Of a stretch of DNA of 64,000 nt, positions 1 through 45,133 are shown one piece after another. The DNA comes from Escherichia coli (GTDB lineage Bacteria > Pseudomonadota > Gammaproteobacteria > Enterobacterales > Enterobacteriaceae): the NCBI RefSeq assembly GCF_050920415.1, contig NZ_CP169309.1; one strand, given 5' to 3'. Every line of letters begins with the position of its first letter. The stretch's first letter is position 1. A program made the position numbers and the translations under genes. Below the pieces are notes generated by a model. That model saw only the letters and a list, made by a program, of their open reading frames with translations, was not told where the DNA came from and searched no databases.

Positions 1-1219
1 CAATGAAGCGATAGCCTTCGATGAATTCCCAACCAGCGCTGGTTTGCCAGGTTCCATGACGACCAAACTGTGAGTTATCGTCGCTGCGTGCTGCGCCTTC
101 AAAGGTAAAATCGCCGACTTGTTGCAGCCCGGTCAGATAGATGCCGGTATTACGTTGATCATATCCATCCTCAACATAACCTGTACCCGGCGTCGTAGTC
201 TGTTTCTGCCAGTCGACACCCGCACCAATACTACCGTGACCAACGATGACATTGTTTGCCCACTGGACGGTGTATTGCTTCATCTCATCGAGCGTCGCCG
301 ACGAATCATAACGACCATAATGCGGATCGTAGTTGTAATCTTTGCTATGGCTATAGCTGGTAATGAGTTGTGATTTAATCAGTTCGCCGTTATAGCGCAG
401 CCCGGCGTCCCAACTTTGGCTATAGAGTTTACGGGTATCGAGCAACGGTGAGCCGGGAGAATAATATGCGTCATAATTGGTACGGTTATCATAGCCATAG
501 CCGCGCACAAAACCGCTCCAGACATCAGTAAAGTTATGCTCCAGCGCGCCATAAAGCGTTTTACTTAAAAAACCATCGTTATCTGGCTGAGCTTGCGTTC
601 CGGTATTACCATAGGCGACAACATCATAACCATGAGTATGGGCATAATCGCCCAACAGCGTTACCCGTGTCTTATCTCCCAGTTGTTGCTGTGTAGAAAC
701 ATCATAGTTCTGATAGCTATTGCTTCCCCACCCTGCTGAAATTTCCGTTCCGGGTTGATCGCGCGTCGTGATGATATTCACGACCCCACCTATTGCATCG
801 GAACCATAGACGGCGGAGCGCGGCCCACGGATATATTCAACACGCTGGACAAGCGCAATAGGGAACTGGCTAAGGTCGGCAGAACCACTCACCCCCGCCA
901 GATTCAGGCGGACGCCATCAATTAATACCAGCACATGACTGGCATTTGTACCGCGAATAAAAATAGATGAGAGCTGACCTGAACCGCCGTTTTGGGTGAT
1001 ATCGACACCCGGAAGACGGCGCAGCACATCATTGACCGAGGTCGACTGCCAGCGGTCGATATCCTGACGCGTCACAACGGTGGTTGGTGCAAGCACAGTG
1101 CTGCGCGGCTGTTCAAAACGGTTAGCAGTAACGACGAGAGTATCCGGGCTGGTATCCTGTGCCCAAGCGGAAAAGGCTGTGACAGAACACGCCGTCAGCA
1201 GCGAAGCTTTTTTAATCAT
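1..1219 (-). CDS. btuB: Vitamin B12/cobalamin TonB-dependent outer membrane receptor BtuB, 5' part only (gene continues past the window start)
   Basis: Minus-strand translation from ATG at 1219 gives [37 protein letters not shown] and continues in frame to position 1 (..[33 protein letters not shown]). Absent from the ORF track because there is no stop in the window. Confidence 0.93.
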
Positions 1220-1460
1220 TGTAAAGCATCCACAATAGAAGAAGGATGCCGCAGGCTTCATCAATATTACGCGATGATGAGAACCAGATGCGACGTTAGC
1301 CGGCAGGTCTTCGGGCTTGGAGGGGTATATAAAATACTAAGAGATGATGACTTCCCACCGGATGGCAGTGTCCGCATAACGCAATCATCGCACCTTTCCT
1401 TACCGCTGCGCGTCAGCTCCAGATTTGCACTGGATTCCCTATTAACTCACAGGACCGGCG
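1220..1460 (-). promoter_or_regulatory. btuB 5' leader containing the adenosylcobalamin (B12) riboswitch
   Basis: Roughly 240 nt untranslated leader directly upstream of the btuB ATG on the minus strand; the sequence matches my recollection of the btuB leader (established knowledge: btuB is controlled by a cobalamin riboswitch in its long leader). The 173 aa plus-strand ORF 992..1513 lies over it and is not believed to be coding. The 5' boundary is approximate. Confidence 0.8.
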
Positions 1461-1587
1461 AGTGGATGCTACAGGTTGTAACAAGTTGCTGTCCAGACGT
1501 AGCTCACAAATAGGAATACATCAAGATCTGGACATCTGATGAGCAATCCCTACAATCGCCGCGTACATTTCATTTTCAGGATACATC

Positions 1588-2688
1588 ATGACCCCCGAAC
1601 ACCTTCCAACAGAACAGTATGAAGCGCAGTTAGCCGAAAAAGTGGTACGTTTGCAAAGTATGATGGCGCCGTTTTCTGACCTGGTTCCGGAAGTGTTTCG
1701 CTCGCCGGTCAGTCATTACCGGATGCGTGCGGAGTTCCGCATCTGGCACGATGGCGATGACCTGTACCACATTATTTTTGATCAACAAACCAAAAGCCGC
1801 ATCCGTGTAGATAGCTTCCCCGCCGCCAGTGAACTTATCAACCAGTTGATGACGGCGATGATTACGGGTGTGCGTAATAATCCCGTTCTGCGCCACAAGC
1901 TATTCCAGATTGATTACCTCACCACGCTGAGCAATCAGGCGGTGGTTTCCCTGCTGTACCATAAAAAGCTGGATGACGAATGGCGTCAGCAGGCGGAAGC
2001 TTTGCGCGATGCGTTGCGCGCACAAAATTTAAATGTGCATCTGATTGGTCGGGCAACGAAAACCAAAATCGCGCTGGATCAAGATTACATCGACGAACGT
2101 CTGCCGGTCGCAGGGAAAGAGATGATCTACCGTCAGGTAGAAAACAGCTTTACCCAGCCGAACGCGGCGATGAATATTCAGATGCTGGAATGGGCGCTGG
2201 ACGTCACCAAAGGCTCAAAAGGCGATTTACTGGAGCTGTACTGCGGCAACGGTAACTTCTCATTAGCCCTGGCGCGCAATTTTGATCGGGTATTAGCCAC
2301 CGAAATCGCCAAGCCTTCGGTCGCTGCCGCGCAATACAACATTGCCGCTAACCATATTGATAACGTCCAAATTATTCGTATGGCGGCAGAAGAATTTACT
2401 CAGGCGATGAATGGTGTGCGCGAGTTTAATCGCCTGCAAGGGATCGACTTGAAGAGTTATCAGTGCGAAACCATTTTTGTCGACCCACCGCGCAGCGGTC
2501 TGGACAGTGAAACCGAGAAAATGGTGCAGGCGTATCCACGTATTCTGTATATCTCCTGCAATCCGGAAACGTTATGCAAGAATCTGGAAACATTAAGCCA
2601 GACGCACAAGGTTGAACGTCTGGCTCTGTTTGATCAGTTCCCCTACACGCACCATATGGAGTGCGGCGTATTACTGACCGCGAAGTAA
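1588..2688 (+). CDS. trmA: tRNA (uracil54-C5)-methyltransferase
   Basis: 366 aa [32 protein letters not shown]..., with the SAM-dependent methyltransferase C-terminal region; recognised as TrmA. Confidence 0.95.
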
Positions 2689-2693
2689 AATCT

Positions 2694-2719
2694 ATGCCGG
2701 ATGCGCCAGCATCCGGCAT
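2694..2719. terminator. Hairpin between convergent trmA and yijD, likely a bidirectional terminator / REP-like palindrome
   Basis: Inverted repeat gccggatgc gccagc atccggc immediately after the trmA stop. Confidence 0.5.
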
Positions 2720-2727
2720 GATACCGA

Positions 2728-3087
2728 TTACTCAGCAACTTCCTGCTTACGGTTACGCATCTTCGCGCCAATCCAGAACACCATAATGACGGACAGTACT
2801 GCCGGGAAGAAGTTAGAGCCGATATCCGGATATTCCGCACGAACTACCGTGCTGTACAGCAGTACGCCGAGAATAAAACAAGCAGCAGCCAGACCCGGCA
2901 AGCCTACCGGCATAGTGCGATTAAGATAACGTTGATGCAGGCAGTAAACTGTCAGCACCAGGGAAATAATCGGGAATACAGAAAATGGCACAATGGAGCT
3001 AAACAGCGCTGCGAAAGTACCATTAATCGATAAGCCAGCAACTAACGCCAGCAGCAGCGTACCTCTATCTTGATTTGCTTGTTTCAT
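2728..3087 (-). CDS. yijD: Inner membrane protein YijD (DUF1422)
   Basis: 119 aa hydrophobic [28 protein letters not shown]...; its start overlaps the fabR stop (TAATG), suggesting translational coupling. Confidence 0.88.
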
Positions 3088-34988: not shown

Positions 34989-35204
34989 GAAGGAAAAGCT
35001 GAAGGGCGTCAACCGAAAAATGACCAATGATGGTGAGGAAAAATCAGGGAAGATGAAAAAAATTCATCTTAATTAGAGGTAATAAATAGATTTCTTTATA
35101 GCGCAATCAACCTCACTCGTTTTGACTGATATACAGGCAACACAACGGCACCTGTTTCTCATTCGAAAAACAACGCCCTGCCACCAGATGGTGATGCTAA
35201 AGCA

Positions 35205-35245
35205 TCTGATTCGGCCTGCGCTCTCGTGTAGGCCGAATACAGAAT
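35205..35245. repeat. REP-like palindrome near the left edge of the metF-metL accessory segment
   Basis: Inverted repeat attcggcctgcgctctcgtgtaggccgaat. Confidence 0.4.
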
Positions 35246-35294
35246 CTGCGAAATCAACGGGTAACAAACAGCAGAGTCAACTCAGTGCGTACTT

Positions 35295-36850
35295 TTATTT
35301 AATATCTTTCACGCGCATACCGTTGATCTGTTCATCCGTGATGGTATTACCCGCTTTAAAGTAATCAACCACCGCGTGATAAACGTAATAACCGCCCGTC
35401 GTATTGCGCGCTTTACCCTCGGTAAACGCGGTAAAACCATCTCCACCATCAGCAAGGAAACTCTGAGTGGCAATGTGGTAAACCGTCGCATCTTCAATCG
35501 GTTTGCCATTCAAAGTCAGTGAGATAACCCGCTGACCAACCGGCTTGCTGCTGTCGTACTTCATTTCCAGGCCTTTCGATACCTGTAAAACGCCATTACT
35601 TAAACTTGCGCCGTGTTCCATCAAACTGCGTAATTGTTTACCCGTGAGATCCATCGTCACCAGTTCGTTGGGGAACGGGAAGGTACTGATGACGCCACCC
35701 ATCGTAATTGCACCCGCCGGGATCTCATTGCGAATCCCGCCAGAGTTGGTTAACGCCAACTGGGTATTTTTACCCGCCGCTGCCAGCAAAGCGTCCGCCG
35801 CCAGGTTCCCGAGGGAAGCCGATTCACCATAGGCACGTTTTAATTCAACCGGCGATTGCGCCACCGTTTGCTGACTTCATCCAGCTTTTTGTTCCAACTA
35901 TCAATCACCTGTTTCGTTTGCGGATCGGGCTTCCACTCATCGGCGTAAAGGGTTTTAAGCTCGAAGTTTTTCACCGTAAAAGTGTGCGGCTTCTCTTTGT
36001 AGTCGAGAACCAGTTTACCCACATCAATCCCGCCGCTGTCAGTGGAGAGGATTAACGTATTGCCGACTTTAATCGGTTCCGGCGTACCCACATGTGCATG
36101 CCCGGTGATCAAAATATCCAGCCCTTTCACCTGACTTGCCGTCTGAATATCTTTATCCAGCGCGCGACGCACATCTGTGCCTCCCATACTGGACTGGCGG
36201 GCCGGAACACCTTCGTGGATCAGGGCAACGGTCAAATCAACCTTGCCTTTGAGTTCATCGATATAACGTTGTAGCCATTTAATTTCATCACGCGCCTCAA
36301 TACCCACTCGCGTTGCCGCAGATACCGTATCATTAAAGGCAAATACACCGTGCAAACCAATCACGCCAATTTTCACGCCGTCTTTTTCAATGATGGTATA
36401 GGGCTTATCCCAGAATGATTTACTGCTGTTCTGATAAAAAACATTACCCTGCACAATCGGGAATTTTGCCTGACTCAGCTGTAATAACGTATTGTCCCAG
36501 CCGTGATCAAATTCATGATTACCTATAGTGACCGCATCGAACGGCATGGTATTCATAATATCGATAATCGCCTTGCCTTTAGTCAGGCTGCTGATATACG
36601 GCCCGGTAAAATAGTCACCCGCATCAAAAAACCAGGTCGCTTTGTTTTTAGCTTTTTCTTGTTTAACAAGCGTAGTGATATTTGCCCAGCCGCCAATATC
36701 TCGTTTACCGTCAGCAATCCACGGCACTTTATAAGGCTCTACATGTGCATGGAGGTCGTTGGTATAAATGATGGTGACATCTTTGGCGCAAGCCCAAAAC
36801 GGCAGTGTTAATGCGATACCCGCAGCAAGCATTTTAATTTTCATAAACAA
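35295..36850 (-). pseudogene. Frameshifted periplasmic 5'-nucleotidase/metallophosphatase paralog (UshA/CpdB-type two-domain enzyme)
   Basis: ORF 35840..36850 (336 aa, signal peptide MFMKIKMLAAGIALTLPFWA; metallophosphatase motifs NDLHAH, DAGDYF, GNHEFD, GHAH) is followed in another frame by ORF 35295..35864 (189 aa, nucleotidase C-terminal domain). The two parts align end-to-end with the intact downstream paralog, so a single frameshift near 35860-35875 splits one gene. Confidence 0.75.
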
Positions 36851-36903
36851 TCCCTTCCAGTGAGATAAAGGATTGCTACATTACGTTCTGAAAGGCTTTT
36901 TTA

Positions 36904-36919
36904 TGTGAGAATACTCACA
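36904..36919. promoter_or_regulatory. CRP-type palindrome (TGTGA-N6-TCACA) in the divergent promoter region
   Basis: tgtgagaatactcaca is a perfect match to both CRP half-sites with a 6 bp spacer, lying between the nucleotidase pseudogene start (36850) and the Cys-rich ORF start (36977). Confidence 0.55.
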
Positions 36920-36976
36920 TCCAGAGGCGATAACTGTAGGACAAAATCAACGACCTTATGAAATCGTTGGTGATAT

Positions 36977-38104
36977 ATGTCAAATCTGTTTGCGATTAAT
37001 GTCTGTAAAACGTTCGGTTGTCGAAATTTGGGATTGGCCTCATCGGAAGATTACAGTTGGCCAGACTATAAACTGGGTTTTCCGGCACTACACTGCCAGG
37101 CATGCGGAAGTTACCCCCCTTTGTTTGATGAACAACAATTTCGTGACTGGTTGTCAGTTCACATGACTACGTGTGCCATAGAAACAGGGCATTTTTGTCC
37201 ATCATGCTATTGTAAAGAAAAGATTTTTTATGGCCACAACCCGCAGGGAACACAACGCGTTCAATGCCGTTCATGCAAAAAAGTCTGGACTCCGAAACAG
37301 CAGCCAGCAAGAGAAATTACGTATCCCCAGTCCATTGAAACCGTTCAACTGTTCATGCCCTTTCAAGGAGCCAGCGCACTACAAAAGCTCTATGTTTTAG
37401 TCAGTCTTGACGCCACTCGTGGCAACATCCTTCATCTCTCCACGAATTATACGCAACATCAGACAGGAGACAGTCTGCGGTACAGTTACAGAGGCAATAC
37501 AGAACCAACTGAGCACCATAGCGATATTGTGCAGAGGGTAGATATGCGTGAAGCGCAATTCTTGCGCCGGAGCCAGTTCGATGAAATTCAGTATGGCAGT
37601 GCTGTGCTCAAGCGCAATGGCAAGGGAGCCATACTACGCCCGGTTATCACGGCACACGGGCATTTCAGAATACTGAAAATCCGCTTTCCACATGTCAAAA
37701 CGCATATCATTTCACACGAATGTTTTCTGAGAGGCGCAATTATTACAGCCTGGGCAGATCAGTTCCGCCAACAACAAGGCGAACTTTGGTTCGTAGAAGA
37801 AGAAATCAGCGACCGTAACGCTGATATTCCCTGGCATTTTCAGGGAACGACATACCATGGTTGGTGGCAAAATCAGTGGCAACGCTGGGGGCAGGGGAAT
37901 AACAGCAAGATGGTCTGCCTGCTCACAGGAGTCTCCTTAGAAAGGGGCGCAAATGTTTCTCTGGCAACCAGTCGTTGCTTTATCACATGGCTGACAGACC
38001 AACACGACTTTACCCAAAGCGCGTTATTATCCGCAGGTCGCGTAACGAAAATGCTGACCTCACTGGCGTTAAAATACAATGAATCGCTCAATCCATCTTG
38101 TTAG
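36977..38104 (+). CDS. Hypothetical cysteine-rich protein with an IS1 InsA-like N-terminal zinc ribbon
   Basis: 375 aa. N-terminal 100 aa carry CxxxxC, CxxC, CxxC and CxxC motifs (CKTFGC, CQAC, CPSC, CRSC); the stretch CPSC..RVQCRSCKKVW resembles the IS1 InsA zinc finger CPSC..RYLCSHCRKTW as I recall it. No recognisable DDE or HTH motif seen by eye in the remaining 270 aa. Flanked by AT-rich DNA. Confidence 0.6.
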   Translation: MSNLFAINVCKTFGCRNLGLASSEDYSWPDYKLGFPALHCQACGSYPPLFDEQQFRDWLSVHMTTCAIETGHFCPSCYCKEKIFYGHNPQGTQRVQCRSCKKVWTPKQQPAREITYPQSIETVQLFMPFQGASALQKLYVLVSLDATRGNILHLSTNYTQHQTGDSLRYSYRGNTEPTEHHSDIVQRVDMREAQFLRRSQFDEIQYGSAVLKRNGKGAILRPVITAHGHFRILKIRFPHVKTHIISHECFLRGAIITAWADQFRQQQGELWFVEEEISDRNADIPWHFQGTTYHGWWQNQWQRWGQGNNSKMVCLLTGVSLERGANVSLATSRCFITWLTDQHDFTQSALLSAGRVTKMLTSLALKYNESLNPSC

Positions 38105-38333
38105 TCAATACACTCGACAAACGACCATAAATTAATGGGATCACTATTTCTCATTTAATTAAATATATGAATGTATGACTGAAAAATATAATCACAGTCA
38201 ATGTTTAATTAATAACATTATTTGTTACTAAGATCACATAATACTTTCCTGACCTATGCTTACATAAAAATAAGACACGGAGTTCCTTTTATTTAAATAA
38301 TTCAACCAATGTAACAACCCCTATCAAGGAGGG

Positions 38334-39887
38334 ATGATGAGAACTGTATTTACGACTTTATCAGTCATATTCAGCGTGATGTTTTCTCACAGTATACTAG
38401 CTCAGGACGTTACTATTTATTATACGAATGATATTCACGCACATGTCAATCCGGCAAAAATTCCCGCTGTTGATAAGAACAGACTTGTAGGTGGTATGGC
38501 TAATATCGCAGGCATCGTTAATGAAGCGAAGAAAAAAAACAAAGATGTCTTTTTCTTTGATGCAGGCGACTATTTTACCGGTCCGTATATCAGTACCCTG
38601 ACCAAAGGTGAAGCTATTATTGATATCATGAACACCATGCCCTTTGATGCGGTGTCCGTTGGTAATCACGAGTTCGATCACGGCGTGCCCAATATGGTAT
38701 CTCAGTTATCAAAAGCAAAATTCCCCATTCTGCTGGGAAATATTTACTACACCGATACAAATAAACCAGTTTGGGATCATCCGTGGACCATTATCGAAAA
38801 AGATGGTTTAAAGATTGGTGTGATTGGATTGCATGGTGCATTCGCTTTCTATGATACAGTCGCGGCAAAAGCACGTGAAGGCGTAGAAGCCAGAGACGAA
38901 ATTAAATATTTAAATAAAGCACTTGCAGAATTAAAAGGTAAAGTCGACATTACCGTTTTGCTAATTCACGAAGGTGTTCCGGCGCGTCAATCAAGCTTTG
39001 GTAGTAAAGATGTGGAGCGGCTACTACAGGCAGATATTGAGACAGCTAAAAAAGTGAATGGTGTTGATGTCTTAATTACCGGTCACGCACATGTCGGAAC
39101 ACCGCAACCAATAAAAGTTAATAACACATTAATTGTATCTACCGATGCATACGGCACCGACATCGGAAAACTTGTGCTTGATTACAATCCGAAAACAAAG
39201 AAAATTGATAGTTATAATGGTGAGTTAATCACCATCTTTGCAGATCAATTTAAACCTGACACCATCGTTCAAAATACTATCGATAAATGGAGCGTAAAAC
39301 TTAACAAAATAACACAGGAAGTTGTCGGCCATTCTCCCGTAGTTTTAACACGTGAGTATGGCAGTTCTTCTTCTACCGGTAACCTTATTCTGGATGCAAT
39401 GATGGAAAAAACACCTGATGCCATTGCCGGATTTCAAAATAGCGGTGGGATGCGAGCTGATTTTCCTAAAGGTGATATCACACTGGGAGATGTTATTAGC
39501 ACATTCCCCTTTAATAATGACCTCATCGAGATGGATTTGACGGGCCGCGATCTCAAATCGTTGATGACGCATGCAACCAATCTAACTAACGGTGTGTTAC
39601 AGGTTTCAAAAAGCGTTGCGGTTGTCTATGACAGCAAAAAACCACTCAACCAACGGTTAATCTCTTTCACCATTAACGGCAAACCCGTGGAAGATAATCA
39701 AACATATCGTATTGCCACGCACTCCTTTTGTGCCAGTGGTGGTGACGGTTTTGAAGCATTTTTGAATGGAAAAAATGTGAAGACGATACCGGGAACAACC
39801 TCGGCGGAATCAATCATCGATTATTTCAAAAATCATAAACCTGTCACCCCAGACTTAACTAAACGAGTCATGGACGTCGCCAAATAA
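38334..39887 (+). CDS. Periplasmic 5'-nucleotidase/metallophosphatase (UshA/CpdB family), paralog B
   Basis: 517 aa; signal peptide MMRTVFTTLSVIFSVMFSHSILA; all metallophosphatase motifs present (NDIHAH, DAGDYF, GNHEFD, GHAH) plus a C-terminal nucleotidase domain. Strong RBS aggaggg; the start may be the second ATG at 38337. Confidence 0.8.
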   Translation: MMRTVFTTLSVIFSVMFSHSILAQDVTIYYTNDIHAHVNPAKIPAVDKNRLVGGMANIAGIVNEAKKKNKDVFFFDAGDYFTGPYISTLTKGEAIIDIMNTMPFDAVSVGNHEFDHGVPNMVSQLSKAKFPILLGNIYYTDTNKPVWDHPWTIIEKDGLKIGVIGLHGAFAFYDTVAAKAREGVEARDEIKYLNKALAELKGKVDITVLLIHEGVPARQSSFGSKDVERLLQADIETAKKVNGVDVLITGHAHVGTPQPIKVNNTLIVSTDAYGTDIGKLVLDYNPKTKKIDSYNGELITIFADQFKPDTIVQNTIDKWSVKLNKITQEVVGHSPVVLTREYGSSSSTGNLILDAMMEKTPDAIAGFQNSGGMRADFPKGDITLGDVISTFPFNNDLIEMDLTGRDLKSLMTHATNLTNGVLQVSKSVAVVYDSKKPLNQRLISFTINGKPVEDNQTYRIATHSFCASGGDGFEAFLNGKNVKTIPGTTSAESIIDYFKNHKPVTPDLTKRVMDVAK

Positions 39888-39921
39888 AATATCATTTATC
39901 AGTCTATATATTTAACAAGGA

Positions 39922-41547
39922 ATGCGAATGAAAACAGTGCAGCGTACTTTACTTGCCGCAACATTGCTGACTATTTTTTCGGTCTCAGTCATGGCGCAGG
40001 ATGGCACGATTATTTATACAAATGATCTTCACACTCATGTGGATTCTTATAAAGTGCCGTATATCGCAGACGGAAAACGCGACATTGGCGGCTTTGCCAA
40101 TATATCTACTTTAGTAAAACAAGAGAAAGCGAAAAATAAAGCCACCTTTTATTTTGATGCTGGAGACTATTTCACCGGCCCTTATATCAGCAGTCTGACA
40201 AAGGGCGAAGCAATAATTGACATTATGAATACCATGCCTTTTGACGCAGTATCAATCGGCAATCATGAGTTTGACCATGGCTGGGATAATGCCCTGCGAC
40301 AATTAAGCAAAGCGAATTTTCCTGTTTTATTGGGCAATGTTTATCATAAAGAGAGTGAGAAACCCTTCTGGAACAAGCCCTACACCATCCTGGAAAAAGA
40401 TGGCATCAAGATTGGTATTATTGGGCTACACGGCGTATTTGCATTTAATGATACGGTCTCGGAGCTCTCTCTCCAGGGACTCGATAATGACAATAATAAC
40501 CGCTTTGATAAATCTTCCGAGACCCTTAAGAATCAGGGGATTGAAGCACGTGATGAAGTGAAGTATTTGCAGCATTATATCGACGAGTTACGTGATAAGG
40601 TTGACCTCACTGTGGCGCTGGTTCATGAAGGCGTTCCGGCGCGTCAGTCCAGCATTGGCAATACAGATGTTAGACGCGCTCTTGATAAAGATATTCAAAC
40701 CGCTAGCAAGGTGAAAGGATTGGATATTCTGATTACCGGGCATGCCCACGTCGGAACGCCAGAACCAATCAAAGTCGGCAACACCTTAATCCTTTCGACT
40801 GATAGTGGCGGTATCGATATTGGTAAATTAGTCCTTGATGTCAACCCTACAGCTCGTACCCATAAAATGAAGAGCTTTGAGCTGAAAACAGTTTATGCCG
40901 ATGAATGGATACCCGATCCAACGACACAAAAAGTTATCAATGGCTGGAATAAAAAACTGGCGGATATTGTACGCCAACCAGTGGGTGAATCATCGATTGT
41001 ATTAACTCGCGCCTATGGTGAGTCATCGCAACTAGGCAACCTGTTTACCGATGCAATGCTTGTCGCTGCTCCGACTGCACAGATTGCATTGATAAACTCC
41101 GGCAGCTTACGTGCGGATATAAATGCAGGCACGATTACCTTTGGCGACATTACCAGTACATTCCCCTTCAAGAATGAACTTACTGAAATGGATCTCAGCG
41201 GTAAGGATCTGCGTAACCTACTGGAACACGGGGCATCGCTTACCAATGGCATCCTGCAAATGTCAAAAGGCGCAGAAATGCGCTATACCCCGCAGAAACC
41301 AGTAGGTCAGCGCATAGTATCTTTTAAAATTAATGGTGAAGAGATCGTTGATACGAATATTTACCATGTTGCAACAACGACTTTCCTTGCACTGGGGGGC
41401 GATGGTTTTCTGGCATTCAAAGAAGGGAAAAATGTTCAGGTCCGCGCCAGAAATAACATGTCCGATGTCGTGATCGATTATTTGAAGAAAGGCCACAAGA
41501 TTACGCCTGCACAGGTAAATGAAATGCGGGTGGACGTTAGCAAATAA
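39922..41547 (+). CDS. Periplasmic 5'-nucleotidase/metallophosphatase (UshA/CpdB family), paralog C
   Basis: 541 aa; signal peptide MRMKTVQRTLLAATLLTIFSVSVMA; metallophosphatase motifs intact. The N-terminal domain is about 80-85% identical to the frameshifted paralog and carries an extra N/D-rich segment of about 25 aa. Confidence 0.8.
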   Translation: MRMKTVQRTLLAATLLTIFSVSVMAQDGTIIYTNDLHTHVDSYKVPYIADGKRDIGGFANISTLVKQEKAKNKATFYFDAGDYFTGPYISSLTKGEAIIDIMNTMPFDAVSIGNHEFDHGWDNALRQLSKANFPVLLGNVYHKESEKPFWNKPYTILEKDGIKIGIIGLHGVFAFNDTVSELSLQGLDNDNNNRFDKSSETLKNQGIEARDEVKYLQHYIDELRDKVDLTVALVHEGVPARQSSIGNTDVRRALDKDIQTASKVKGLDILITGHAHVGTPEPIKVGNTLILSTDSGGIDIGKLVLDVNPTARTHKMKSFELKTVYADEWIPDPTTQKVINGWNKKLADIVRQPVGESSIVLTRAYGESSQLGNLFTDAMLVAAPTAQIALINSGSLRADINAGTITFGDITSTFPFKNELTEMDLSGKDLRNLLEHGASLTNGILQMSKGAEMRYTPQKPVGQRIVSFKINGEEIVDTNIYHVATTTFLALGGDGFLAFKEGKNVQVRARNNMSDVVIDYLKKGHKITPAQVNEMRVDVSK

Positions 41548-41558
41548 TAAAAAATTAT

Positions 41559-41594
41559 AATGCCATTCATTCACTGAATGGCATTATTTTTCTC
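41559..41594 (+). terminator. Intrinsic terminator after nucleotidase paralog C
   Basis: aatgccattca ttcac tgaatggcatt followed by a T-rich run. Confidence 0.6.
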
Positions 41595-41624
41595 TAAATC
41601 AACAATAAATAATGAGATATATTT

Positions 41625-42485
41625 ATGTGTATAAAAAAGCACGGGATAGCTTTATCGATTCTATTAATACCTTGCATTGGAAACGCTCAGGAAATTAAAA
41701 GTGAGGAAGGCTGGTTACATCAAAGCTTGAATGTCATTGGTCGCACAGACTCTCGCTTTGGCCCAAGGCTGACTAACGACCTCTACCCTGAATATACTGT
41801 AGCAGGAAGAAAAGACTGGTTTGATTTTTATGGTTATGTTGATCTACCAAAATTCTTTGGCGTCGGCAGTCACTATGATGTTGGGATCTGGGATGAGGGC
41901 TCACCACTATTTACGGAAATAGAACCTCGGTTTTCCATTGACAAATTGACCGGATTAAATCTTGCGTTCGGCCCTTTTAAAGAATGGTTCATTGCAAACA
42001 ACTATGTCTATGATATGGGTGACAACCAGTCATCCCGGCAAAGTACATGGTATATGGGGCTTGGTACAGATATCGACACGGGTCTACCAATTAAGCTTTC
42101 TGCCAATATATACACCAAGTATCAGTGGCAAAACTATGGTGCCGCTAATGAAAATGAATGGGACGGATATCGATTCAAAATAAAATATAGCATTCCTCTT
42201 ACCCATTTATTCGGAGGGCGATTGGTATACAATAGTTTTACTAACTTTGATTTTGGCTCCGATCTTGCGGACAAATCACACAATAATAAACGAACCAGTA
42301 ATGCTATTGCTTCAAGCCATATCCTTTCCCTGCTATATGAACACTGGAAATTTGCATTTACACTACGTTATTTTCACAACGGTGGACAATGGAATGCTGG
42401 GGAGAAAGTTAACTTCGGAGATGGTCCATTTGAATTAAAAAACACAGGATGGGGAACCTATACTACTATTGGTTATCAATTTTAA
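41625..42485 (+). CDS. Tsx-family nucleoside-specific outer membrane channel paralog
   Basis: 286 aa; aligns along its whole length with E. coli Tsx as I recall it (e.g. [63 protein letters not shown]). Signal peptide present. Confidence 0.8.
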
Positions 42486-42664
42486 ATCAGGTGATGTTTT
42501 AGATATTTTTACTTAATGCCATTTTGTAATTGTCATAAATAACTTCACCATTCACACTGTGAATTCATCGCTCAACACAAAAGCCCCTTATTACCGGGGC
42601 ACTGACCAAAGGCAAAATGACAATCAATCACCACCTCCGCAGGAGGTGGTTTAGAGGTGACAAC

Positions 42665-42690
42665 AAAAGCTGGCAACTGCCAGCTTTTGT
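42665..42690. terminator. Bidirectional intrinsic terminator downstream of metL
   Basis: aaaagctggcaactgccagctttt, a perfect hairpin flanked by an A-run and a T-run. Confidence 0.7.
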
Positions 42691-42700
42691 TCAATAATCA

Positions 42701-45133
42701 CTACAACAACTGCGCCAGACGGTTAATATCCGACTGAATCGCCCCGGCGGTGACGTCGCGCCCTGCACCTGGCCCGCGGATCACCAGCGGGTTGTCGCGA
42801 TACCAGCGGCTTTCGATGGCAAAGACGTTATCGCACGGTAGTAGTGATGCCAGCGGATGGTCTTCTCGCACCGCTTCCACGCCTACTCGCGCTTTGCCGT
42901 TGGCATCGAAACGCGCCACGTAGCGCAACACCAGCCCCATTTCACGGGCCGCTTCCAACCGTTGTACCATCTGCTCATTAAGTTCATCGCCATTTTCAAA
43001 GAAATGGTCGATGCTTCCACCTTCGCAATGGGTTGGCACCAGTGATTCAACACGCACCTGGTCCGGTTCAATGTTGTAACCCGCTTCACGCGCCAGAATC
43101 ACCAGCTTGCGCATCACGTCTTTGCCGGAGAGGTCATCACGCGGGTCAGGTTCAGTTAAGCCCTGCTGCCACGCCTGATCCACCAGCTCGGTAAACGGCA
43201 CGCTACCGTCGAATTGCAGGAACAGCCAGGAGAGTGTGCCGGAGAAGATCCCGCTGATCGACAAAATAGTGTCGCCGCTGTCGATCAGATCGCGCACGGT
43301 ATGGTTGATCGGCAAACCTGCGCCGACGGTGGCGTTGTATAGCCAGTGACGCCCGGTTTTTTCGAACGCGTCGTGGATCTGGCGATATTTATTGCTGTCG
43401 CTCGCTCCCGCCAGTTTGTTGGCACTGATGACGTGGAAACCGTGGCTGGCGAAATCGAGGTATTGATCGGCCAGTTGCTGACTGGCGGTAACGTCCAGCA
43501 CCACTAAATCATCATACGGATGGGCACGCATCCACAGGAACAGCGACTCTTCATCCTGTTCGACGGCTTCATCATTAAAGAAGGCTAGCGCACGGCTGGC
43601 GTCCAGCCCGTCATAGCTCAACAGGCTGCGACGGCTGTCCACCACGCCTGCCAGCACAAATTCAAAGCCGGTGCGCGCCGAGAGCGTGCTCTGCTCACGG
43701 GCGAACAGTTCCAGCCAGCGGGAACCGATATTGCCCTTACCGAACAATACCAGGCCGATGCGTTTTTCTGCGCGGAAGACGGACTGATGCAGCCCCTGAA
43801 TCAGGCTTTCGGTCGGCCCGGTGCGCAGTACTGCCACCAGGCTGATGCCGTCATCGGACTGCCAGGTAAACTCGACCGGCTGGCCTTTCAGTTGCTGCCA
43901 GAAGCGGTGGCAATGCAGCGGGTTACGGGTGACGCCCGCCCCAACCATCGCCACCAGCGCCAGCCCCTGACGCAGGCGCAGTTCGCCAGGTAATCCTGCT
44001 TCGTCGAGGATTTTCAGCGCACTGTCGGCCACTTCCGAGGTGTAGCAAAATTGCAGCAACTGGCGATCGTTATGCACGCCAACCGCCAGTGGGCGCACCT
44101 GAGCACGTTTCAGGATTTGGTCGATCTCTTTATGCGCCAGTTTGAAATCCTGACTGGCGGGCACCTGAAACTCAATCAAACAGACATCATCGTGGCTGGT
44201 GACAATACGCGCGCCCGTACCGGAAGCCAGCACGCGTTCAATGCGCGTGGAACCTTGATCCGGTGTATAGCTACAGCGCAGCTGCAGGTCGATTTCACTG
44301 CCAGAAACTGGCTGTAAAGTACGCGCGTGCAACACTGGCGCGGCAAGACGCGCCAGTTCGCTGGCTTCATCAAGACGCAGCAATGGCAGCAGACAGGCAT
44401 CTTTCACTTTACGCGGGTCGGCGCTATATACCCCGGCGACGTCACTCCAGATGGTTACGCGGGAAACTCCCGCCAGCGCACCGATTTGTGTCGCGGAATA
44501 GTCGGAACCGTTACGCCCCAGCAGCACCGTTTCACCGGCGTTGTTACGGCTGATAAACCCGGTCACCACCAGACGTTTGCCCGGATGTTGTACCAGTAGC
44601 TGTTGCAGCAACGGGTAAGAAAGCCCTTCATCAACCTGCGGCTGCGCGGCGCGTTCAGCGCGTAAAAACTCGCGGGCATCAAGCCAGGCCGCTGGCAATC
44701 CTTGTTGATTAAGTACCGCAGACATCAGGCGCGCCGACCACACTTCACCGTGGCCCACCACTTCCGCATACACCGCATCGTTAATACCGCTGTCGAGCAG
44801 CGCCGCCAGGCGTTCCAGATCGCTGACAAAAGCGCTAATGAGGCTATCGGCTTCTTCAGCGGGTAGCAGGCCGCTAATCAGATCGCACTGATAACGACGT
44901 AGCGTTTGTTGAACCTGATGCGCAGAGAGACGATCGGTCTGGCTTAGTTTCAACCAGTTAATCAACTGGTTAGTGGTGCTACCGGCGGCGGAAACCACCA
45001 TCATATCGTCAGGCTGAGAGTACTCCGCCATAATGCCCGCGACACGCAAATAACACTTCACATCAGCCAGACTACTGCCACCAAATTTATGCAGTTGACG
45101 ACCTTTCGCCCCTGCCTGCGCAATCACACTCAT
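42701..45133 (-). CDS. metL: Bifunctional aspartokinase II / homoserine dehydrogenase II
   Basis: 810 aa, MSVIAQAGAKGRQLHKFGGSSLADVKCYLRVAGIMAEY... Confidence 0.96.
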   Translation of the reverse strand: MSVIAQAGAKGRQLHKFGGSSLADVKCYLRVAGIMAEYSQPDDMMVVSAAGSTTNQLINWLKLSQTDRLSAHQVQQTLRRYQCDLISGLLPAEEADSLISAFVSDLERLAALLDSGINDAVYAEVVGHGEVWSARLMSAVLNQQGLPAAWLDAREFLRAERAAQPQVDEGLSYPLLQQLLVQHPGKRLVVTGFISRNNAGETVLLGRNGSDYSATQIGALAGVSRVTIWSDVAGVYSADPRKVKDACLLPLLRLDEASELARLAAPVLHARTLQPVSGSEIDLQLRCSYTPDQGSTRIERVLASGTGARIVTSHDDVCLIEFQVPASQDFKLAHKEIDQILKRAQVRPLAVGVHNDRQLLQFCYTSEVADSALKILDEAGLPGELRLRQGLALVAMVGAGVTRNPLHCHRFWQQLKGQPVEFTWQSDDGISLVAVLRTGPTESLIQGLHQSVFRAEKRIGLVLFGKGNIGSRWLELFAREQSTLSARTGFEFVLAGVVDSRRSLLSYDGLDASRALAFFNDEAVEQDEESLFLWMRAHPYDDLVVLDVTASQQLADQYLDFASHGFHVISANKLAGASDSNKYRQIHDAFEKTGRHWLYNATVGAGLPINHTVRDLIDSGDTILSISGIFSGTLSWLFLQFDGSVPFTELVDQAWQQGLTEPDPRDDLSGKDVMRKLVILAREAGYNIEPDQVRVESLVPTHCEGGSIDHFFENGDELNEQMVQRLEAAREMGLVLRYVARFDANGKARVGVEAVREDHPLASLLPCDNVFAIESRWYRDNPLVIRGPGAGRDVTAGAIQSDINRLAQLL

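Follow-up and report, generated by a model that had tools for sequence, protein, structure and literature searches.

Organisation of the metF–metL island

In a 64-kb stretch of Escherichia coli DNA (the window) we analysed an open reading frame (ORF), here called X, which lies on an island between metF and metL together with the genes for three paralogous 5′-nucleotidases and a Tsx-family channel (Table 1). X is a single uninterrupted frame of 375 codons on the plus strand, with its ATG at 36977 and its stop at 38104; coordinates, strand and length are exactly those given by the initial annotation, which had been made from the sequence alone. The four cysteine pairs listed there were located as well, at C10/C15 (CKTFGC), C40/C43 (CQAC), C74/C77 (CPSC) and C97/C100 (CRSC). 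It was likewise correct that X is transcribed divergently from a nucleotidase pseudogene with a CRP-like site between the two genes. A 4-bp deletion at 35874 relative to IAI39, in which nucleotidase 1 is intact, splits that gene into two ORFs, and the 126-bp divergent region contains a perfect CRP core (36904–36919). The window is 100% identical to NZ_CP169399 and 99.7% identical to IAI39 and CE10. No RNA family was detected in the island with Rfam.

Table 1. Positions in the window of ORF X, its parts and the neighbouring features
Feature	Position	Strand	Remarks
ORF X, 375 amino acids; probably an IS1-like, catalytically inactive, transposase-derived protein	36977..38104	+	RefSeq WP_000067197
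Zinc ribbon 1 (C10, C15, C40, C43)	37004..37105	+	Cysteines in all 48–49 covering sequences; modelled β-hairpins 26–30 and 37–40
Zinc ribbon 2 (C74, C77, C97, C100), homologous to IS1 InsA zinc finger by profile comparison	37196..37276	+	Profile matches
Short linker, residues 101–118; no helix in model	37277..37330	+	Alignment, model
RNase H-like (DDE transposase/integrase) core, residues 119–258, as modelled	37331..37750	+	
Family-specific β-sheet insertion (269–317; W296, W297, W301 conserved) and C-terminal helical bundle (321–371; N368 conserved)	37781..38089	+	Model, alignment
Invariant block TTACGTTCTGAAAG between CRP site and nucleotidase 1 start	36881..36894		
Perfect CRP-type core TGTGA-N6-TCACA (TGTGAgaatacTCACA)	36904..36919		Perfect in 4 of 5 enterobacterial orthologous regions
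Conserved inverted repeat TCAACGA-N10-TCGTTGG	36947..36970		Ends 7 nt before X ATG
Second CRP-like site TGTTActaagaTCACA, upstream of nucleotidase 2	38223..38238		1 mismatch
Whole island between metF and metL	35067..42701		7.6 kb; replaces 194 bp of K-12 sequence; no terminal inverted repeats
5′-Nucleotidase paralog 1, UshA/CpdB superfamily, signal peptide	35295..36850	−	Frameshifted here
5′-Nucleotidase paralog 2, 517 amino acids, signal peptide	38334..39887	+	
5′-Nucleotidase paralog 3, 541 amino acids, signal peptide	39922..41547	+	
Tsx-family nucleoside-specific outer-membrane channel	41625..42485	+	489.9 bits against a cut-off of 311

RefSeq labels X 'hypothetical protein' or 'cytoplasmic protein', and some of its orthologues in Klebsiella and Vibrio carry the Prokaryotic Genome Annotation Pipeline (PGAP) name 'IS1 family transposase'. 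Because six of the seven defining features of IS1 transposases that were tested are absent from X, this name is a misannotation. When 1.84 billion cluster representatives were searched exhaustively, an X family of 122 clusters at 50% identity emerged, spread over Enterobacterales, Vibrionales and Alteromonadales-like taxa. Full-length relatives from Vibrio, Photobacterium, Thaumasiovibrio and Salmonella comprise 400–570 amino acids and share 19–34% identity with X. When a 5.8-billion-protein database was searched again with the family profile, the matches listed were close family members alone, and nothing was added. All residue counts given below refer to an alignment of 52 relatives with 19–72% identity.

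Zinc ribbons and homology to IS1 InsA

The cysteines of zinc ribbon 1 are kept in every relative that covers them. In ribbon 2, C97 and C100 are invariant, while C77 is present in 50 and C74 in 41 of the 52 relatives. The paired cysteines of X are beyond chance. Ribbon 1, which nothing in Pfam matches, is confined to the X family.

The initial annotation had pointed out a resemblance between the second ribbon and the InsA zinc finger of the insertion sequence (IS) IS1. Profile searches with X itself, the check named there, detected ribbon 2 alone and only weakly. Pfam Zn_ribbon_InsA aligned with residues 74–101 at a sub-threshold independent E-value of 0.009. The NCBIfam model transpos_IS1 (NF033558) covered residues 74–115 only and gave 19.6 bits against an equivalog cut-off of 100, whereas a genuine IS1A reached 243 bits; IS1_IS1595_Zn gave 15.1 bits against a cut-off of 28. 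The single PHROG match of X is a transposase family (E 0.004) and is confined to the zinc ribbon. At the level of the family the resemblance is solid and proved to be real: the family profile aligned with residues 5–87 of IS1 InsAB′, i.e. its zinc finger plus helix-turn-helix (HTH), with an hhalign probability of 96.6% and an E-value of 6.7e-10. In addition, Zn_ribbon_InsA (PF03811) was matched by seven of the 52 relatives at E≤0.001 (best 1.4e-7), and distant relatives matched positions 1–81 of transpos_IS1 with E-values of 1e-9 to 1e-5. Zn_ribbon_IS1595 (PF12760) was matched weakly (E≤0.1) in four of the 52. Judged from these profile comparisons, zinc ribbon 2 of X is homologous to the IS1 InsA zinc finger. 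Matches of X to sequences in the PDB were discarded, as they comprised only C2H2 zinc-finger arrays, owing to compositional CxxC, and a spurious flavohaemoglobin match. No defence-protein model in PADLOC was matched by X at E≤1.

Predicted fold and loss of the catalytic site

The structure of X was modelled by AlphaFold2 with the family alignment (predicted local distance difference test, pLDDT, 93.4; predicted template modelling score 0.93). The model shows two β-hairpin zinc ribbons with a long helix between them, a core with the element order β1-β2-β3-α-β4-α-β5-α, which is that of an RNase H-like fold, a four-stranded insertion and a C-terminal helical bundle. IS1 transposases are among its nearest structural outgroups. 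Model and alignment agree with the earlier statement that X has neither a DDE triad nor an HTH. Beyond what could be seen from the sequence alone, the C-terminal 260 residues nevertheless form a transposase-type RNase H fold in the model.

In place of linker 101–118 of X, its relatives carry an InsA-type HTH of about 50–80 amino acids, which is deleted in the enterobacterial clade of E. coli, Citrobacter, Klebsiella and Enterobacter. In the V. mimicus relative, modelled with a pLDDT of 89.5, three helices (residues 108–161) separate ribbon 2 from the RNase H-like domain. Since helices are kept at this place, the models indicate that the ancestral architecture of the family is zinc ribbon – zinc ribbon – HTH – RNase H-like domain.

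According to the predicted topology, T122 (in β1), P222 (after β4) and E248 (before the helix after β5) would occupy the positions of the catalytic D, D and E. The first of these columns holds Thr in 40 and Ser in nine of the 52 relatives, the second Pro in 49, and the third Glu in 46 and Asp in six; apart from E248 there is no conserved acidic column in the alignment. No family member matched the Pfam models DDE_Tnp_IS1 (PF03400) or DDE_Tnp_IS1595. When the IS1 DDE domain was compared with the C-terminal domain of X by hhalign and hmmsearch, using an IS1 profile of low diversity, only the zinc ribbon and HTH were aligned and any extension beyond them was noise. Because the sequence alignment reached no further, the assignment of the D, D and E positions rests on fold topology. 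Conserved non-catalytic residues of the core region are R198, H229, H247, E248, R252, W296, W297, W301, Y169, N157 and N368. Of these, H229 is invariant in the family, and H247, E248 and R252 are nearly so.

Synteny, selection and mobility

X is present in 1841 of 5426 complete E. coli genomes, about a third, with exactly one copy per genome, and no second copy was found within the window. X and its nucleotidase are paired at one and the same metF–metL site in E. coli, including a second allele group, in Citrobacter and in Klebsiella pneumoniae. In the latter, where the pair is found at this site in thousands of assemblies, X is a near-core gene. The X–nucleotidase–Tsx cluster of Enterobacter hormaechei lies at a different chromosomal place.

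We found no terminal inverted repeats around the X ORF, or around the island in its 3-kb or 7.6-kb form, and the empty site of K-12 corresponds to a 194-bp replacement rather than a clean insertion with target duplication. This answers the question of inverted repeats and target-site duplications raised by the initial annotation. An inverted pair that does surround X (36898–36919 and 38223–38270) was considered as transposon ends and dismissed: it consists of two CRP-like promoter sites, two of the three sites with at most one mismatch in the window, which flank X and mimic an inverted repeat. A conventional IS insertion was rejected because inverted repeats are missing, the gene is single-copy and the empty site shows a replacement. 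X is thus no complete conventional IS, and the zinc ribbons appear in its predicted structure; neither of the two outcomes that had been named as fatal to the initial proposal was observed. The suggestion made there that X is a remnant of the element that delivered the island found no support, given that the metF–metL site is shared by three genera and the pairing with nucleotidases recurs in Vibrionaceae.

The ratio of non-synonymous to synonymous substitution rates (dN/dS) among X orthologues is 0.09–0.14, compared with 0.02–0.06 for the neighbouring nucleotidase. X is functional and under purifying selection, and evolves faster than its neighbour. Alleles of X at the same E. coli site fall into megablast identity bands of at least 99%, 90–95% and 60–80%. 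Between IAI39 and an allele of 73% identity (window 36851–38104 versus L003 7869–9131), synonymous divergence (dS) of X is 1.75, whereas the adjoining nucleotidases are 99% identical at the protein level with a dS of only 0.2. The intergenic region or its close vicinity must therefore contain a breakpoint of recombination or replacement. In the Vibrio clade (loci L012–L037), nucleotidases of different species are 68–94% identical, but the co-transcribed X proteins only 32–51%. By these sequence comparisons X evolves much faster than its partner there, as it does in enterobacteria.

Gene neighbourhoods across the family

To survey the neighbourhoods, one genome per species in GTDB was scanned with the Vibrio-clade alignment as query, and the census thus describes that clade. 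It yielded 27 loci from Vibrio, Photobacterium, Enterovibrio, Aliivibrio, Thaumasiovibrio, Psychromonas, Motilimonas, Agarivorans and Celerinatantimonas. A 5′-nucleotidase with a signal peptide is located immediately upstream of X on the same strand in 23 of the 27; two of the remaining four are truncated or fragmentary.

Other arrangements occur across the family. X is divergent from a nucleotidase in V. taketomensis and Photobacterium, and from a nucleotidase–nucleotidase–Tsx cluster in Enterobacter hormaechei. It lies downstream of a nucleoside phosphorylase gene in Thaumasiovibrio and divergent from one in Motilimonas. On one metagenome contig it is divergent from deoB-like, phosphorylase and NupG-like genes, and on another it adjoins genes for a phosphodiesterase/sulfatase, Tsx and a nucleotidase. 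X is also divergent from nupC-deoC-deoA…deoD in Agarivorans, from tal-add-deoA…deoD, with nupC downstream, in Celerinatantimonas, and from genes for a porin, a class B acid phosphatase and a class II phosphodiesterase in Salmonella Give. At all loci of relatives with readable flanks (Vibrionaceae, Agarivorans, Celerinatantimonas and Salmonella), X has as neighbours genes for a 5′-nucleotidase, Tsx, the deo operon, nupC, a nucleoside phosphorylase or phosphatases. As the partners differ in family and compartment and yet share one pathway theme, the pattern is the signature of a pathway regulator and not of an enzyme partner.

Candidate operators

A Gibbs search of 22 Vibrio-clade nucleotidase promoters returned the motif ACCAACnCAAAnGGTAACTn (19.4 bits) in all 22. 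This 20-bp oriented motif, written ACCAACnCAAAnGGTAAC, is conserved upstream of the catabolic genes in HTH-bearing members of the family; most copies precede the nucleotidase start codon by 127–155 bp, and a CRP half-site comes after many of them. When the matrix was applied to nine HTH-bearing loci not used for training, the best match of each region was oriented toward the catabolic genes (per-locus shuffle p 0.001–0.09; Fisher combined p = 3e-9). Eight of these matches are intergenic, and the ninth, in Thaumasiovibrio (L009), falls inside the phosphorylase coding sequence and has to be discounted. Control intergenic regions of the same loci (n=27) had a median p of 0.36, and the two with p<0.05 both belong to the Salmonella phosphatase island. 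In that island of Salmonella Give (L006 8420; 414–3022) there are two further good matches, one 31 bp after the X stop codon and one between the PAP2 and phosphodiesterase genes, which may be additional operators. A LacI-family-type palindrome, GCAAACG(T/A)TTGC (PurR- or CytR-like), stands beside a TGTGA half-site at L013, L016, L020, L021, L024, L025 and L032, so that a known regulator may act at those Vibrio-clade nucleotidase promoters too.

The five HTH-less enterobacterial regions contain no match to the Vibrio-type motif (position weight matrix, PWM, p = 0.83), and the loss of the HTH and the loss of the motif therefore coincide. What they share instead are three elements of the divergent promoter region. 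The other E. coli allele, Citrobacter and Klebsiella all retain the CRP core, although its spacer varies, and Enterobacter has it with one mismatch (TGCGA). The core promoter of the nucleotidase gene is probably formed by the second element, the invariant block TTACGTTCTGAAAG. The third, the repeat TCAACGA-N10-TCGTTGG, is unique in the window, with no occurrence expected by chance, and is a candidate for an operator or a hairpin in the 5′ untranslated region. Its arms show no covariation among the enterobacterial regions and are simply conserved. Read toward the nucleotidase, on the minus strand, it also resembles a weak intrinsic terminator (36948–36969), with a hairpin of nine pairs including G-U followed by ATTTTGTCCT.

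An apparent likeness of the E. coli repeat (CACCAACGATTTCATAAGG) to the Vibrio-type motif was rejected, as its PWM score is at background (p = 0.83). Any likeness of either motif to the terminal repeats of IS1 was attributed to chance, the pentamer CCAAC alone being shared (best PWM score 4.9). Both terminal repeats of IS1A (K-12, L043) contain CCAACTTAyTGAT, and CCAAC is the core shared by the Vibrio motif and the E. coli half-sites (ACCAACGA).

Proposed function and alternative explanations

Taken together, we consider it probable, at roughly 85%, that X is a domesticated inactive transposase. The ancestry is supported by a ribbon homologous to InsA and by a DDE-transposase fold whose nearest structural outgroups include IS1; the replaced Asp positions, the lack of inverted repeats, the single copy, synteny, a dN/dS of about 0.1 and the link to catabolic genes support domestication. 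That X regulates the adjacent nucleotidase and Tsx genes, as gene context and the upstream motif suggest, is only slightly favoured, and less so for the HTH-less clade. The initial annotation had offered a domesticated, transposase-derived regulator as one possibility. Ancestry and domestication are indeed favoured, and the regulatory role is suggested by context; for E. coli X it is weaker because the enterobacterial clade has deleted the InsA-type HTH.

In the mechanism we propose, an IS1-like transposase would have lost catalysis and its ends but kept the end-binding module of zinc ribbon and HTH. This module would now recognise an operator (ACCAACnCAAAnGGTAAC) upstream of CRP-dependent promoters of nucleotide and nucleoside catabolism, while the dead RNase H-like domain with its conserved residues would probably serve oligomerisation and/or effector binding. 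In the clade of E. coli, Citrobacter, Klebsiella and Enterobacter, with HTH deleted and motif lost, X would act through its zinc ribbons on TCAACGA-N10-TCGTTGG. The most likely target of E. coli X would be this palindrome, which would overlap the transcription start of X itself and its ribosome-binding site next to the shared CRP site, and from there X could control the divergent nucleotidase and X promoters. Its targets would thus be the three adjacent periplasmic 5′-nucleotidase paralogs and Tsx, under local transcriptional control. Rather speculatively, the family could constitute an unrecognised class of bacterial transcription factors in which the InsA module binds operators and the dead DDE pocket (R198, H229, H247, E248, R252 and the Trp cluster) senses a nucleoside, nucleotide or pentose phosphate. 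Such a factor would be a third CRP-linked master regulator in gamma-proteobacteria alongside CytR and DeoR, and the enterobacterial clade, after losing the HTH, would have evolved anew a palindromic operator whose ACCAACGA half-sites the zinc ribbons recognise.

Several observations weigh against our proposal. The E. coli clade lacks both the HTH that IS1 InsA needs for DNA binding and the Vibrio-type motif, and its mode of action may therefore differ from that of HTH-bearing relatives. The promoters used to train the motif are orthologous, so that its conservation partly reflects shared ancestry, and the conservation of neighbours is partly phylogenetically non-independent as well. LacI-type palindromes (GCAAACGTTTGC) in several Vibrio promoters mean that known regulators could explain expression without X, and the same is true of CRP, whose sites are present. 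Finally, T122, P222 and E248 were mapped onto D, D and E by topology and not by superposition.

The deletion of the HTH together with the absence of the motif also feeds an alternative that we regard as unlikely, namely that X of the HTH-less E. coli clade is domesticated but no longer binds DNA. It could then be a small-molecule sensor, a protein that partners CRP or some other regulator, or an RNA-binding or post-transcriptional factor, acting for example on its own 5′ hairpin. A hairpin can fold from the conserved inverted repeat, and R198, H229, H247, E248, R252 and W296/297/301 make up a conserved pocket-like set. However, selection has maintained both zinc ribbons, modules that bind nucleic acids in IS1; a conserved palindrome in a divergent layout is what a DNA operator typically looks like; and the arms of the hairpin are conserved without covariation. 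Some of these conserved residues could also be read as an active site. H229 is invariant and H247, E248 and R252 nearly so, the RNase H fold is a nuclease fold, and the link to nucleotide and nucleoside catabolic genes is invariable; X might then be a cytoplasmic enzyme, e.g. a metal-dependent nuclease or hydrolase using H229, H247 and E248, that supplies or processes substrates of the pathway. We think this improbable. A metal site of two or three carboxylates is missing, the heterogeneity of the neighbours (periplasmic nucleotidases, cytoplasmic deo enzymes, transporters, porins) points to a regulatory link at the level of the pathway, and the N-terminal InsA-type DNA-binding module and the upstream motif would be left unexplained. 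The novel zinc-ribbon enzyme considered in the initial annotation is unsupported and seems improbable.

An active non-canonical transposase or recombinase, or a relic of an IS that delivered the island with the nucleotidases as cargo, is less credible still and largely refuted. The PGAP name on some orthologues and the DDE-transposase fold would fit such a protein, and so would the restriction of the island to about a third of complete E. coli genomes, the different position of the E. hormaechei cluster and the disparity in dS (1.75 against 0.2), which indicates recombination at the locus. Yet both predicted Asp positions are replaced family-wide, no terminal inverted repeats delimit the gene or either form of the island, the empty site of K-12 lacks a target duplication, and each genome has exactly one copy at a locus that is syntenic in three genera. 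Moreover, a dN/dS of about 0.1 over deep divergence is unexpected for a decaying relic, and the NCBIfam IS1 score of 19.6 bits stays far below the cut-off of 100. A domesticated transposase thus remains the preferred explanation.

Comparison with known systems

IS1 InsA binds the ends of IS1 by means of its zinc finger and HTH and represses transcription (PMC12428005). IS1 InsAB′ is the closest relative of X in sequence and structure: ribbon 2 is homologous to the InsA zinc finger, HTH-bearing relatives of X keep the InsA-type HTH that follows it, and these share the order zinc ribbon – HTH – RNase H-like domain. On the other hand, X has an extra N-terminal zinc ribbon, a β-sheet insertion and a C-terminal helical bundle, and members of its family are 375–570 amino acids long, compared with 232 for InsAB′. 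X lacks the programmed −1 frameshift that joins two overlapping frames in IS1, has Thr and Pro at the predicted Asp positions without a Pfam DDE_Tnp_IS1 match, and, in the E. coli clade, has no HTH after the zinc finger. Nor is this single-copy, syntenic gene bordered by terminal inverted repeats of about 23 bp or a target-site duplication. From the transposases of the IS1595 family the relatives of X differ in having no DDE_Tnp_IS1595 match, and Zn_ribbon_IS1595 is only weakly matched in four of 52.

Eukaryotes offer well-documented cases of DDE transposases turned into transcription factors, among them FHY3/FAR1 (from Mutator-like elements) and DAYSLEEPER (from hAT). Like these, the X family retains a transposase DNA-binding domain next to an inactivated RNase H-like core and is immobile, single-copy and under purifying selection. 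FHY3/FAR1 and DAYSLEEPER were recruited to regulate host genes, a role that X may share; unlike them, X is bacterial, IS1-derived and tied to nucleotide and nucleoside scavenging. A bacterial exaptation of a transposon protein is represented by TldR, the RNA-guided repressors derived from TnpB. Here, too, a transposon-encoded nuclease fold lost catalysis and was repurposed for regulation, as we suppose for X. TldR, however, descends from the RuvC-type TnpB and X from a DDE IS1-like transposase, and no guide RNA was seen, there being no Rfam match in the island.

With CRP, the regulators CytR and DeoR control the nucleoside-catabolism regulon of E. coli (deoCABD, tsx, nupC, nupG, udp, cdd). The presumed targets of X follow the same theme, comprising the deo operon, nupC, tsx and nucleoside phosphorylases in association with CRP sites, and its divergent position relative to deo and nupC genes in Agarivorans and Celerinatantimonas resembles that of a local regulator. 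CytR and DeoR belong to the LacI and DeoR families, whereas X combines zinc ribbons with an RNase H-like fold; the analogy would be one of function and is drawn from gene context.

A full-text literature search, limited to one library, found no relevant paper on the X family or on bacterial regulators derived from DDE transposases. Transposase domestication as such is known; its bacterial, IS1-derived and pathway-specific form would be new. If the regulatory role is true, X would be a clear example from bacteria of a domesticated transposase whose target pathway is defined. X would also be the missing local regulator for the uncharacterised periplasmic nucleotidases and Tsx channels that extra-intestinal E. 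coli, Klebsiella and vibrios possess, and a natural experiment on how a DNA-binding protein copes with the loss of its HTH. Independently of function, misannotation of the family inflates IS1 counts.

Further observations

The stretch of nucleotidase 1 around 35874 is 95.4% identical to IAI39, compared with 99.7% for the X region. In the window the Tsx-like gene has its full length (profile positions 6–289 of 289), but its counterpart in IAI39 (L001 16776–17621) is annotated as an incomplete pseudogene. In Photobacterium nomapromontoriensis (L010 6645–7000) the deposited relative of X (380 amino acids) begins too late. Because the 'intergenic' DNA upstream of it encodes the N-terminal zinc ribbon (…CKNLGVASQDYHFPVYTLGYKALHCRHCDSYPPLFDDE…), either the start of this gene has been mis-called or the gene is frameshifted. 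Some strains of Salmonella and E. coli contain a second, distant paralogue of X with 21–23% identity elsewhere in the genome, which is represented in AFDB by the entries A0A8X6EQK0, G5PXM9, A0A5N8HJ61 and A0A828N132.

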